Virus record (IMG/VR): IMGVR_UViG_2698536449_000007
Origin: a virus
Taxonomy: Duplodnaviria; Heunggongvirae; Uroviricota; Caudoviricetes
DNA length: 4,116 bases
Strand: one strand, 5' to 3'
Part shown: positions 915 to 4,114 of the stretch, piece after piece
Position numbering within the stretch: the first letter of the stretch is position 1
Layout of the letters: each line of letters begins with the position of its first letter
The notes under the pieces: generated by a model
What the model was told of the DNA's origin: nothing
Database searches by the model: none
What the model saw: the letters and a program-made list of their open reading frames with translations, nothing else
Made by a program: the position numbers and the translations under genes

Positions 915-1070
915 TTACTTCCTGGATTCGTAGTCTACGAAGACAGCGACCTCCGTCTGGCCGGTTCGGATTCGTACCTCACAGAGGTCTTTCCTCGTTA
1001 CCAGTGCCGTCACTATGACGGTTAAACAGATGACGATCAGGGCGATTAACATCGCCTTTTGCTGCTTCAT
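915..1070 (-). CDS. hok: Hok/Gef-family type I toxin (51 aa, membrane-depolarising peptide)
   Basis: ORF MKQQKAMLIALIVICLTVIVTALVTRKDLCEVRIRTGQTEVAVFVDYESRK. Basic N-terminus, single hydrophobic helix (LIALIVICLTVIVTALV), then the TRKDLCEVR and EVAVF...YES-type C-terminal signature of Hok/Gef peptides. AGGAG lies 9 nt upstream of the ATG (1070-1068); stop TAA at 917-915. Confidence 0.85.
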   Translation of the reverse strand: MKQQKAMLIALIVICLTVIVTALVTRKDLCEVRIRTGQTEVAVFVDYESRK

Positions 1071-1127
1071 AGCCTGCTTCTCCTTGCCTTTCGGCATGTA
1101 AGAGGCTAACCTACATGTGCAAAGCAT
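915..1127 (-). CDS. mok: mok-like leader reading frame (in-frame N-terminal extension covering hok)
   Basis: ATG at 1127-1125 with GAGG about 8 nt upstream; encodes MLCTCRLASYMPKGKEKQA followed by the Hok sequence in the same frame. Matches the organisation of chromosomal mok/hok pairs, where mok translation is needed for hok translation. Confidence 0.5.
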   Translation of the reverse strand: MLCTCRLASYMPKGKEKQAMKQQKAMLIALIVICLTVIVTALVTRKDLCEVRIRTGQTEVAVFVDYESRK

Positions 1128-1178
1128 GAAATTGGCCTCAGATTAATGTTAAGCGTCTTGCCGGACGCGTAATGTTAA
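1112..1178 (+). ncRNA. sok: Candidate sok-type antisense RNA (boundaries approximate)
   Basis: Positional inference only. A plus-strand antisense transcript is expected to cover the mok SD and start (1125-1140). Possible -35 TTGCCT (1084-1089) and -10 TAACCT (1106-1111); a 5-bp hairpin at 1153-1168 (GCGTC/GACGC) is followed by a weakly U-rich tract. Both signals are weak. Confidence 0.22.
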
Positions 1179-1246
1179 CTGGGGCTTTTCTCTATCTGCC
1201 TTTTGGTGTTCATGCCTGAAGCAGATAGCCTCAAGCACCCGCAGTC

Positions 1247-1276
1247 ATTCTACTTACCTCGCCAATATGAAATCAA
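1247..1276 (-). promoter_or_regulatory. Candidate promoter of the hok/mok transcript
   Basis: Minus strand TTGATT (1276-1271), 18-nt spacer, TAGAAT (1252-1247). Predicted start near 1240, coinciding with the tac-like segment 1229-1244 that is complementary to 842-858. Implies an mRNA of about 450 nt ending at the 787-839 terminator. Confidence 0.4.
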
Positions 1277-1297
1277 TCAGAAAGGTGCCCCATAAAA

Positions 1298-1984
1298 TCA
1301 CTCCTTCTCTTCTTTACCGTAGTGGAGTTGACCAATTTTGATAAGAGGGCGTCCCTGAGATTTGCGGTGTAGATTGGTATCGCGCAGAGAATACACACAG
1401 CCACAATATTCCTGCTGATAGAATTTTTCGCGCTTGCTGATTTCAATCATACGGGACGAGCCGCCCTGCTTGCGCCAGTTATAATCCCAGTACACCATGC
1501 CCGGATAATGCGCGACGGCTCGCCGCCCACAGTCGTTAACCTGCTGCATATTTTTCCAGCGTGAAATGCCCAGTGAACTGCTGATCACACTGAAACCATT
1601 TTCAGCGGCGTACAGCGCTGTCCGCTCAAAACGCATGTCAAAACACATGGTGCAACGGATCCCTCGTTCGGGCTCCCATTCCATTCCTTTGGCTCGTTCA
1701 AACCAGTTGTCTGTGTCGTAATCAGCATCAATAAACGGCACGCCGTGTTGTTCAGCAAAGCGAATATTCTCATCCTTACGAATTAAATACTCTTTCTGAG
1801 GATGAATGTTCGGGTTGTAGAAAAAGATGGTGTAGTCGATTCCCGAGGCCTGAAGCGCCTCCATCACCTCACCGGAACATGGAGCACAGCAAGAGTGCAG
1901 TAGTAGTTTGTTTGCCCCGTTTGGGAGCTCCAATTTGGGCCGTTTGAAATCAGCAACTGTCATAAATATGTTTATTGGGGTCAT
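1298..1984 (-). CDS. queH: Epoxyqueuosine reductase QueH (DUF208 family; final step of queuosine tRNA modification)
   Basis: Hallmark QueH motifs read directly from the translation: [11 protein letters not shown] near the N-terminus, [18 protein letters not shown], and YCGCVYS near the C-terminus; 228 codons is a typical length. Start is ambiguous (ATG 1984 or in-frame ATG 1963); neither has a strong SD. Confidence 0.85.
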
Positions 1985-2045
1985 AAAAATATCAAAGAGT
2001 GTAGCATTAGAACGGGGCTATCGGAAACAGATGTGTGACTGCTCC

Positions 2046-2089
2046 CCGCCCTTTCGGGTGGTCTCCTGATGATTTGAGGGTGCAGAAAT
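2046..2089. repeat. 44-bp direct repeat, copy A (43/44 identical to 3807-3850)
   Basis: CCGCCCTTTCGGGTGGTCTCCTGATGATTTGAGGGTGCAGAAAT. Contains a 6-bp stem with a TTTC/GAAA tetraloop. Lies about 60 nt 5' of queH on the coding strand. Flanking sequence is unrelated to copy B apart from a CCGG a few nt downstream. Confidence 0.9.
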
Positions 2090-2187: not shown

Positions 2188-2553
2188 TCATTGATTCACC
2201 TCCTGCGGTGGTTCCGGTAGCGGCATCCAGTGAGTTGAGCTCTCTACTTCAACGCCGTCTTTGTCCACAAAAGCCATCTTATTCCCGCCACGAGTGGGGC
2301 AAAAAACCTTATCCCAGGAACCGGGGAATACATTCCCGAGATCATCGAGAAGAATCACATCGCAATATTCAGCAGGAACTGCATCACTACAGCTTATCCA
2401 GCCAGCCGGAGCTACCGGAGAGTTGCCAGCCTTACGCATGGCCATTTCCACGATTTCAACCATATCTCCTGGTGGAATTTTACAAAGTTGCCCAATACAT
2501 TTCTGCTGCCTGGCATATTCGAGAATGTGCTCCAGTTTGGTTCGATTAATCAT
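2188..2553 (-). CDS. DUF551-like phage protein (121 aa)
   Basis: C-terminal region carries the W-I-S...VP...VILL and THWMPLPEPP pattern that I recognise as typical of DUF551 prophage proteins. Start ATG (2553-2551) overlaps the stop of the upstream gene (TAATG); GGGAG lies 7 nt upstream. Confidence 0.6.
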   Translation of the reverse strand: MINRTKLEHILEYARQQKCIGQLCKIPPGDMVEIVEMAMRKAGNSPVAPAGWISCSDAVPAEYCDVILLDDLGNVFPGSWDKVFCPTRGGNKMAFVDKDGVEVESSTHWMPLPEPPQEVNQ

Positions 2554-3218
2554 TATTTATCTCCCTTAAGCATGGCAGCGCGGCAGGCGTTCCAGCCATC
2601 AACATAATCAAACGTATTACTATCGTTTGGCCCGATTTCATCCGGCACTATCGGCTCTGGTTGGATAGTGACGTTGGCAAAGGCAGCACGCAAACCGGTT
2701 TTAATTTCTTCGATTTCATCAGAGCCAAGCGATGAATCTGACAGTGCGTGATGGAATGCGTAAGCCATGTCGTCGTTTACTGCAACCGGCACTGCCGGCG
2801 CTGCGTAAAGCGGTGTTATATCTGCCCGAAAATCACATGCTTTATGCAGTCGTACCCAACACTCAACTTCCGCTTTGTCAAAATATATAGCAGTGAACGT
2901 ATTAGATTCCTGGTCAACTTGAGTAAACGTCACCTTCCACGCTACAGCTACGGCTTTCCATCCATCAGGTTGTCGCATTCGCGGGGCAGCATAAAGCTCA
3001 TGCATTCCATCAGGCAGCGAGTGACCCACATACTCACCGAACCCGTCAATACACATGCCCCCATCTTCAACAATGCATTCCGCTACAGGCTCTGCTTCCA
3101 GTGATGCCAGAGCGATAAGCGCCAGTTCACGAATTTCACCGCCGTCTATATCGTCAATATCATCGCGGCCAGAAATGTTAGCCAGCCATTGCAGTCGCTC
3201 TTTGGTAATAGTGGTCAT
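2553..3218 (-). CDS. Hypothetical acidic protein (221 aa) with internal duplicated LYAAP motif
   Basis: Start ATG (3218-3216) overlaps the HNH stop as ATGA. About 39 D/E versus about 17 K/R residues (counted by hand; net charge around -20). Two copies of an (E/P)LYAAP segment about 60 residues apart. No catalytic motif recognised. Confidence 0.55.
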   Translation of the reverse strand: MTTITKERLQWLANISGRDDIDDIDGGEIRELALIALASLEAEPVAECIVEDGGMCIDGFGEYVGHSLPDGMHELYAAPRMRQPDGWKAVAVAWKVTFTQVDQESNTFTAIYFDKAEVECWVRLHKACDFRADITPLYAAPAVPVAVNDDMAYAFHHALSDSSLGSDEIEEIKTGLRAAFANVTIQPEPIVPDEIGPNDSNTFDYVDGWNACRAAMLKGDK

Positions 3219-3580
3219 GCCGTAGCCCCTTCTTGATATTTTTCAAACCAGAACACAACCGGGTCAGATTTCATTTCAACCAATCCCATACGAACCAGCG
3301 CTTTGCCTTTCCCGGACGCAAGGAATTCACGACGACCATCACTGATAATTCGTCGATAATCTTCCAGGCTACTGCAATGCTTGTGCAGATTGCATGGGTG
3401 GCATGCTGGTACCATGTTGGATATATCGTCACGTTCCTGGTGAAGCATATTTCCATCAAAACGAATGACCGGTTTTACATGGTCTGCATGCCACTTTTCG
3501 CCAAGTTCGCAGCCGCAATAAGCGCAGCGACCACCGAACTTCATGCGCAGTTCTGCACGTTGTTTTTTCGTCAGTGCCAT
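3215..3580 (-). CDS. HNH endonuclease (about 121 aa)
   Basis: Canonical HNH core: CAYCG...HADHVKP...N...ACHPCNLHK (two CxxC pairs flanking the H-N-H catalytic residues). Start taken as ATG 3580-3578 (MALTKKQ...) with AGGAAAG 8 nt upstream. The ORF-track start at 3670 is a TTG in the same frame and would overlap the upstream small ORF. Confidence 0.8.
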   Translation of the reverse strand: MALTKKQRAELRMKFGGRCAYCGCELGEKWHADHVKPVIRFDGNMLHQERDDISNMVPACHPCNLHKHCSSLEDYRRIISDGRREFLASGKGKALVRMGLVEMKSDPVVFWFEKYQEGATA

Positions 3581-3581
3581 A

Positions 3582-3800
3582 TCAGCTTTCCTTATACGGA
3601 TTAATTTTATTGTGCAGTGTGTTGAATGACGCCCATACCACGTCGTTATACAATTCAATAACTGGCTCAATTATTTTTCCGATTATCCAGACAAAAATTA
3701 GCGGGGATATCGGTGTCATCAACACGATAAACAGAATGAGAAACAGGAATTCTGTTGTTCTACTCTTTCGCGGATATTTTTTTCTAAATAATGTAACCAT
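3582..3800 (-). CDS. Small putative membrane protein (72 aa)
   Basis: ATG 3800-3798; basic N-terminus (RKKYPRKSR) followed by a hydrophobic segment FLFLILFIVLMTPISPLIFVWIIGKII consistent with one TM helix. Stop TGA (3584-3582) is 1 nt from the HNH ATG, suggesting coupling. No family recognised; AT-rich, so a chance ORF cannot be excluded. Confidence 0.45.
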   Translation of the reverse strand: MVTLFRKKYPRKSRTTEFLFLILFIVLMTPISPLIFVWIIGKIIEPVIELYNDVVWASFNTLHNKINPYKES

Positions 3801-3806
3801 TCATTA

Positions 3807-3850
3807 CCGCCCTTTCGGGCGGTCTCCTGATGATTTGAGGGTGCAGAAAT
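3807..3850. repeat. 44-bp direct repeat, copy B (43/44 identical to 2046-2089)
   Basis: CCGCCCTTTCGGGCGGTCTCCTGATGATTTGAGGGTGCAGAAAT. Perfect 6-bp stem with tetraloop (CCGCCC-TTTC-GGGCGG) and a second stem GAGGG-N9-CCCTC completed by the following CCCTC. Ends 6 nt upstream of the small-ORF ATG on the coding strand. Confidence 0.9.
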
Positions 3851-3892: not shown

Positions 3893-4114
3893 TTATTCAG
3901 TTCTGGATTTTGTCGCCCTGCGTATCCGCGCTTTCGCGTTACGCTCAATCTGTATCAGCTTTTCTATATTTCTCCGCCTTTCCTGTTCCTCCTGGCGCAA
4001 TAGCCTTACATCATCTGCCAGTCTGGTTTCTCTTTTTGCCACAGAGAGCATCCAGTCAAACGGCTCCACAACCGCACCGCAGATTTTACAGCGGACCTGA
4101 CGCTCTTTTTCGTC
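3893..4114 (-). CDS. Partial CDS, C-terminal 73 codons of a hypothetical protein (5' end outside window)
   Basis: Open frame from the window edge to TAA at 3895-3893: ...DEKERQVRCKICGAVVEPFDWMLSVAKRETRLADDVRLLRQEEQERRRNIEKLIQIERNAKARIRRATKSRTE. Contains a CxxC pair and a charged, probably helical tail. It could instead be a short ORF starting at the internal ATG (4051-4049). Confidence 0.35.
   Translation of the reverse strand, partial: DEKERQVRCKICGAVVEPFDWMLSVAKRETRLADDVRLLRQEEQERRRNIEKLIQIERNAKARIRRATKSRTE

Follow-up and report, generated by a model that had tools for sequence, protein, structure and literature searches.

The stretch of DNA analysed here, 4,116 nucleotides (nt) of the IMG/VR virus record IMGVR_UViG_2698536449_000007 and hereafter called the window, carries the gene of an epoxyqueuosine reductase, QueH, in a lambdoid prophage context. 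The gene is probably functional, a single-gene cassette of chromosomal type held in a fixed cargo slot of lambdoid prophages, and likely to make the completion of queuosine (Q) at position 34 of tRNA (Q34) independent of vitamin B12. The enzyme family and its reaction are already annotated in databases, and RefSeq has the exact protein under the name QueH; the new part is the prophage context, so that the advance is one of context rather than of kind. In literature searches that combined QueH with prophage, phage or E. coli strains, no description of a QueH gene on a prophage turned up.

E. coli and Shigella do not synthesize cobalamin (vitamin B12) de novo, and QueG, the epoxyqueuosine (oQ) reductase of E. 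coli, needs it. Prophage queH is therefore read as a means of completing Q without B12, which is the most economical explanation of its presence. Its product would be a functional iron-sulfur, cobalamin-independent tRNA epoxyqueuosine(34) reductase that acts on the oQ34 of tRNA-Asp, -Asn, -His and -Tyr and turns it into queuosine. The cluster of QueH is said, in work of Li et al. from 2021, to be a [4Fe-4S] cluster with an adjacent single iron. A conserved extended -10 element would permit the gene its own transcription, possibly in the lysogen, and queH would also be carried on the early rightward transcript of the phage in lytic growth. Maturation of Q34 would thus be freed from cobalamin, and lysogens or infected cells could finish Q when B12 is scarce instead of stopping at oQ. 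Both the timing of QueH action, in the lysogen or the lytic cycle, and its benefit are things we infer.

The two reductases catalyse the same final step of queuosine synthesis, in which oQ34-tRNA becomes Q34-tRNA; the tRNAs concerned are those for Asp, Asn, His and Tyr, and E. coli has the complete pathway (PMC5372724). QueG and QueH are otherwise unrelated proteins. QueG of E. coli (yjeS, b4166) is a cobalamin/[4Fe-4S] enzyme (PMC5175355), and the title of Frey et al. 1988, cited in that paper, describes oQ reduction in E. coli and Salmonella as cobamide-dependent. QueH is an alternative to the cobamide-dependent enzyme (PMC6461909) and is iron-dependent (PMC13443448); its conversion of oQ to Q was demonstrated at the level of the family by Zallot et al. 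2017, as cited by PMC5372724. For the prophage protein the reaction is assigned through family membership, and the evidence presented here is that of an intact and conserved gene.

The gene lies in an open reading frame (ORF) of 228 amino acids (aa) at 1298..1984 on the minus strand. A sequence-only reading of this DNA had named the frame QueH from its motifs, and all four motifs quoted there, YCGCVYS among them, are in the translation. The identification is borne out by the Pfam QueH profile (PF02677), which matches over its full length, positions 1-174 of 175, with E=1.9e-65 and 220.6 bits (cut-off 23.5), and the window protein also matches the sequence of the T. maritima QueH structure (PDB 7lc5; E=5e-22). 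Seven cysteines, C32, C33, C36, C111, C114, C194 and C196 in the numbering of the 228-aa frame, are all present; they make up the CCxPC, CxxC and CGC motifs and are invariant in an alignment of 18 sequences with identities down to 34%. Profile, invariant cysteines and fold together confirm the ORF as a genuine, intact QueH. A conserved, basic C-terminal tail of ~25 residues lies outside the Pfam domain. No model of NCBIfam release 20 matches the protein at E<=0.01, so the name ‘epoxyqueuosine reductase QueH’ given by PGAP must have another basis.

An AlphaFold2 model of the window protein is of moderate confidence, with a predicted local distance difference test (pLDDT) value of 78 and a predicted template-modelling (pTM) score of 0.78. 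When this model was compared with the PDB by Foldseek, T. maritima QueH took all of the top five places, with E=5e-9 to 3e-8 and a TM-score to the target of 0.69-0.72, and the PP-loop sulfurtransferases TtuA and LarE came next. The window protein is thus predicted to have the QueH fold, a PP-loop/AANH-like Rossmann core. T. maritima QueH (PDB 7LC5, 7LC7, 9DEU) belongs to the same Pfam family, and its CC..., CxxC and CGC cysteine motifs align with those of the window protein, although the two are only ~28% identical. The mutant structures of QueH in the PDB, 9d86 (C9S) and 9dco (D13N), mark the first cysteine motif as mechanistically important.

The coding sequence is probably shorter than the open frame and starts at the second in-frame ATG, 1963 rather than 1984, so that queH occupies 1298..1963 on the minus strand and encodes 221 aa plus a stop, its first residue being Met8 of the 228-aa frame. 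The ATG at 1963 is conserved in chromosomal homologs, including L007 and L008, the nearest to the prophage gene, and PGAP picks the 221-aa start in identical copies. The frame continues upstream to the ATG at 1984, which is not conserved beyond the prophage copies; the corresponding codon of the chromosomal homologs is not ATG. Both the 221-aa and the 228-aa versions are present in public databases.

The PHROGs collection holds the QueH family as phrog_3217 (E=1.7e-138), with the label ‘unknown function’. Its profile, of 188 positions, begins only past the CCAPC motif, at residue 34 in the 221-aa numbering, which suggests that many phage records call queH from an internal Met and lose part of the active site. 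A survey of phage 7-deazaguanine genes, Hutinet et al. 2019, found no homologs of QueA, QueG or QueH in the viruses analysed (PMC6884629). The prophage gene corrects this gap in the phage resources, for phrog_3217 as for the 2019 survey.

The leader of queH contains a putative native promoter. An extended -10-like element, TGCTACACT (TGn followed by TACACT), lies at 2006..1998 on the minus strand, 43 nt upstream of the ATG at 1963, and stands at the same distance in 86/86 prophage copies, a set in which the window is joined by 80 IMG/VR contigs and by five annotated or genome loci. Chromosomal copies have TGCTACACT, TGCTACAAT or something similar at the matching distance, and the pattern TGnTAnnnT occurs 30-70 nt upstream of the start in 21 of 74 of them, against a mean of 3.9 and a maximum of 10 in shuffled sequences. 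Erwinia copies (e.g. L020, L022) have a canonical GTGACA-17-TACACT. The sequence around the -10 has diverged, and so the element itself appears to be conserved for function. It was recognised solely through comparative alignment, not by a promoter scan, and a transcript from it would begin near 1991.

In much of the Enterobacterales queH is an ordinary gene of the chromosome. When one genome per species was scanned, QueH proteins with 77-92% aa identity were found in Enterobacter, Scandinavium, Kluyvera, Serratia, Erwinia, Pectobacterium, Rahnella, Proteus, Providencia and Pantoea, and also in Pseudomonas and Lysobacter. It is their surroundings that lead to this view, as the flanks are housekeeping or metabolic genes and synteny is conserved within a genus; none of these chromosomal copies has hok or nin genes beside it. 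The proteins of Enterobacter hormaechei, Scandinavium and Kluyvera ascorbata are 91-92% identical to the prophage protein over the full length and have the same conserved start, the seven cysteines and the -10 element ~43 nt upstream; they differ in their metabolic or housekeeping flanks, in having no hok beside them, and at the nucleotide level, where identity falls to ~84%. Conservation of QueH across the Gammaproteobacteria is unusually high: the proteins of Erwinia, Proteus, Pseudomonas, Salinicola and Lysobacter are ~78-86% identical to that of the prophage, the basic C-terminal tail included.

What the phage carries is a captured cassette of a single gene, ~740 base pairs (bp) at 1291..2034 on the minus strand, consisting of the ORF, a leader of ~65 nt and ~7 nt of 3' flank. 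This follows from the limits of DNA homology, which to the nearest chromosomal copies (L007 and L008; 83.5-85% nt identity) is confined to 1291-2027 and to a second group of prophage alleles stops at 2034. As nucleotide identity is only ~84%, no sampled chromosomal copy is the direct donor. The GC fraction across queH, 0.47-0.50, is close to that of the flanks, and base composition gives no sign of a foreign origin.

The DNA of queH is present in 995 of 5,426 complete E. coli genomes (18%), at 1,014 chromosomal places and three on plasmids, and all of the matches listed in these genomes are annotated ‘epoxyqueuosine reductase QueH’. By contrast, queG is a core gene, found in 5,426/5,426, so that prophage queH is always a second oQ reductase. 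Shigella sonnei Ss046 and S. boydii Sb227 have exactly the protein of the window, and a RefSeq entry of the form ‘MULTISPECIES ... [Enterobacteriaceae]’ has it on at least 1,000 contigs. In annotated lambdoid prophages the gene order is replication genes (O/P-like, DnaC-like, DUF977), queH, hok, DUF1367/YbcO/RusA/Q and lysis genes. The slot is the same in prophages of E. coli, Shigella and E. albertii, in the isolated Escherichia phage HannyBb, and in a prophage of E. coli O157:H7 (Z1832), where a restriction-modification (R-M) pair of NgoMIV type takes the place of hok. Among the 86 copies, at least five different replication modules precede queH; after it come hok in 68 and a methyltransferase/endonuclease pair in ~11, and in most loci hok sits +914 to +928 nt after queH. 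Since an R-M pair and hok/sok interchange there, the position beside queH is read as an addiction/defence hot spot. In the O157:H7 locus (L169), the genes after queH are those of a cytosine methyltransferase and an NgoMIV-family restriction enzyme (11806-13816), as they are in the IMG/VR loci with clusters c37/c34.

A tblastn search of a phage collection returned 25 records, with HannyBb as the sole convincing phage. The ‘Acinetobacter phage MD-2021a’ records CAKLQH020000001.1 and CAKLQF020000001.1 measure 328-379 kb; the one inspected, CAKLQH020000001.1 at 328 kb, has the look of a bacterial chromosome, with soxR, cynX and tadA flanking the gene. Three ‘Bacteriophage sp.’/Staphylococcus records that were opened (e.g. 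OR844989.1) are unverified and without annotation. Matches in records of either kind should not count as phage-encoded QueH.

The sequence-only reading had described queH as prophage cargo beside a hok toxin, preceded by one copy of a 44-bp repeat, and had taken QueH as an activity probably added to that of a host QueG. The description holds: hok lies downstream at 915..1070 with its hok/sok RNA at 1065-1240, the repeat copy at 2046-2089 is just upstream in the direction of transcription, the slot recurs from E. coli, Shigella and E. albertii to HannyBb, and with queG in every complete E. coli genome QueH is an added activity. Its statement that enterobacterial hosts typically use QueG is too broad, as QueH is chromosomal in many Enterobacterales. 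Its term ‘moron’ fits in part. Like the morons of lambdoid phages (Hendrix-type, e.g. lom/bor and nin-region cargo), queH is an extra gene variably present at one junction in otherwise similar prophages. A putative promoter of its own, with a conserved -10 and a weak -35, would be a further likeness. Unlike the morons, queH lacks a terminator and does not stand out from its surroundings in base composition.

The same enzyme could instead serve the phage. Expressed only from the delayed-early rightward operon and silent in the prophage, it would top up Q34 for the NAU/NAC codons of the late genes. The location of queH suits such a role: the gene is co-directional with the early-right unit and lies inside it, with the replication genes on one side and the Q antiterminator on the other, no terminator parts it from its neighbours, and an isolated lambdoid phage, HannyBb, has it. 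We nevertheless think this unlikely. The -10 element that the prophage gene has in common with chromosomal queH has been kept in every one of the 86 copies, and in Shigella Ss046 and Sb227 the prophage has been broken by many insertion sequence (IS) elements with queH and hok still intact; persistence of queH in defective remnants that no longer grow lytically points to a benefit for the host. The turnover of tRNA would also be slow compared with the lytic cycle. Furthermore, the prophages bring no substrates of their own, as no tRNA with a GUN anticodon, the substrate of Q, was found in 33 queH prophage loci; the tRNAs there are Met/Ile(CAU), Arg, Thr, Gly and Lys, with Glu/Ala/Ile in one locus. 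For the same reason, the idea that queH supports phage-encoded tRNAs was rejected.

Much less probable is a neutral passenger, brought in by illegitimate recombination and kept, with no selected function, through linkage to hok/sok and the recombination-prone nin region. Redundancy with the universal queG, tight linkage to hok and presence in only 18% of genomes are what such a passenger would lead one to expect, but the pattern of substitution is not. Among 85 queH copies with at least 93% nt identity, 84 are intact; the 20 distinct alleles, that of the window included, encode only seven proteins, and of the 55 segregating sites 45 fall on third codon positions. Pairwise dN/dS has a median of 0.025, and dS reaches 0.18. 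Judged by these substitutions, purifying selection on the prophage alleles is strong; dN/dS and intactness lead to rejection of a pseudogene or decaying passenger. Linkage to the toxin also fails as a general explanation, because queH persists without hok in those prophages that have the R-M pair instead and is spread over at least five replication-module backgrounds.

That QueH acts on something other than tRNA-oQ, in 7-deazaguanine DNA modification, as the sequence-only reading had also offered, or in counter-defence, is barely credible: phages do use FolE, QueD, QueE, QueC and DpdA to modify DNA (PMC6884629) and the adjoining slot often holds defence or addiction genes, but the genes named in three queH prophage stretches annotated by PGAP, and in the stretch of HannyBb, include nothing DpdA/TGT-like and nothing for preQ0 synthesis (the last of these stretches is sparsely annotated, mostly as ‘hypothetical protein’, and no profile search was aimed at these genes), PADLOC gave no match and hence no link of queH to a known defence system, 77-92% identity to housekeeping QueH with all invariant residues kept leaves little room for a new specificity, and the 2019 survey had no QueA, QueG or QueH homologs in its viruses. 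The phage 7-deazaguanine clusters resemble the present case in placing queuosine-pathway genes on phages, and differ in that they combine the early, preQ0-forming half of the pathway with a DNA transglycosylase, whereas queH belongs to the last, tRNA-specific step.

Several observations weigh against reading prophage queH as an independently transcribed, B12-independent route to Q. The -35-like element, TTCCGA at 2021..2026 on the minus strand, 17 nt upstream of the -10 hexamer, is weak by inspection of the sequence, with three of six matches, and a generic promoter and terminator scan, which needs a better -35, gave no queH-specific site upstream of the gene or after it. Nor does anything like a terminator lie in the interval from the queH stop (1298) to the promoter-like site of hok (1276-1247), and on inspection a Shine-Dalgarno sequence is recognisable before neither ATG, 1963 or 1984. 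The active site is not identical to that solved for T. maritima, where Asp13 stands in place of Cys36 of the window protein; Cys is usual at this position among aligned homologs. Part of the divergence behind the low dN/dS may be older than capture, should the two allele groups stem from separate events. Finally, that a selective benefit comes through having Q rather than oQ is conjecture.

B12-independent completion of Q can be taken a step further, to QueH as a factor of lysogenic conversion that acts on the host epitranscriptome from its own promoter and uncouples Q completion from cobalamin. We put this forward tentatively, and would not call it the expected outcome. If it is true, about a fifth of E. 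coli strains, together with many Shigella, would have Q34 where non-lysogens keep oQ34 in the absence of B12. B12-poor niches, or loss of the B12 transporter BtuB, would then reveal the difference between Q34 and oQ34, with altered decoding of NAU/NAC codons and altered fitness. Among enzymes for tRNA-specific steps in the Q pathway, QueH would also be the first to be carried by a phage. If the enzyme is active, strain differences in a universal wobble modification in E. coli and Shigella would hinge on prophage content and vitamin B12, and natural isogenic pairs would make it possible to test the function of oQ versus Q and the reason for having B12-dependent and B12-independent isozymes.

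Two such isozymes are found in one cell elsewhere. S. aureus, S. pyogenes and S. suis have QueG and QueH together, with different cofactors, as queH lysogens do, and the differential expression of the two has been attributed to cofactor availability (PMC13443448; PMC12632869). In S. aureus and the streptococci both genes are chromosomal, whereas in E. coli the second enzyme is on a temperate phage and varies between strains.

Every gene of the window is on the minus strand, and together they form a typical lambdoid early-right/nin-region set, with DUF4014, HNH, DUF551 and DUF1367 genes according to Pfam and PHROGs. Downstream of queH lies a hok/sok type I toxin-antitoxin system, of which both the Hok/Gef gene and the regulatory RNA are present. 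The hok gene (915..1070, minus strand; PF01848, E=4e-23) has a frame that stays open back to an ATG at 1127, giving an ORF of 70 aa, and the NCBIfam Hok models match it only below their curated cut-offs. The hok/sok regulatory RNA (1065..1240, minus strand) matches Rfam RF01794 (sok) across the full model, 1-157, with 117 bits (gathering threshold 59) and E=3.6e-27. The promoter-like site ahead of hok (1276..1247, minus strand) comes from the generic scan and begins ~20 nt past the queH stop.

Two direct copies of the 44-nt repeat, at 2046..2089 and 3807..3850, are 98% identical and spaced 1,761 bp apart. The first is directly upstream of the queH cassette, at a module junction; the second is upstream of the DUF4014 gene. 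Between them is a block of four genes (2188..3800, minus strand; Pfam, PHROGs) that is not the usual context of queH: DUF4014 (3582..3800), an HNH endonuclease (3215..3580), a hypothetical gene of 221 aa (2553..3218) and DUF551 (2188..2553). In most queH prophages a single repeat copy joins a gene of 137 aa, 324 bp upstream, straight to queH. The four-gene block was absent among the other queH prophages examined, and a second prophage of FDAARGOS_944 has the block with hok next after DUF551 and no queH. All this makes the window look like a recombinant across the 44-nt repeat, in which two types of nin region would have been joined at a module-junction sequence. The repeat is present in only 3 of the 5,426 complete E. 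coli genomes, and the entire arrangement of the window was found at no place in them at >=80% coverage. As the exact QueH protein is present in S. sonnei Ss046 and S. boydii Sb227, the window may derive from Shigella or something closely related.

The genes of the block are closely packed. Just 1 nt separates the stop of DUF4014 from the ATG of HNH, the end of HNH and the start of the gene after it share 4 nt (ATGA), and at the third junction the overlap is 1 nt, which suggests a single operon with translational coupling. The HNH protein weakly resembles PtuB (Septu) and retron HNH nucleases. On the transcribed strand the second repeat copy (3800-3850, minus) reads AGGAGA-CCGCCC-GAAA-GGGCGG-TAATGA-ATG(DUF4014), with a stable GNRA-loop hairpin between AGGAGA and the start codon (-20 kcal/mol and z=-2.3 for a stretch of 61 nt). 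The hairpin could draw the Shine-Dalgarno-like AGGAGA close to the DUF4014 ATG, as a ‘split’ ribosome-binding site; in the copy upstream of queH, a G-to-A change weakens the stem. At the far end of the window, an ORF of 58 aa (3893..4069, minus strand) is the C-terminal part of the 137-aa protein (cluster c21); the gene of this protein starts outside the window, and the part of that protein missing from the window includes a conserved CxxC...CxxC segment.

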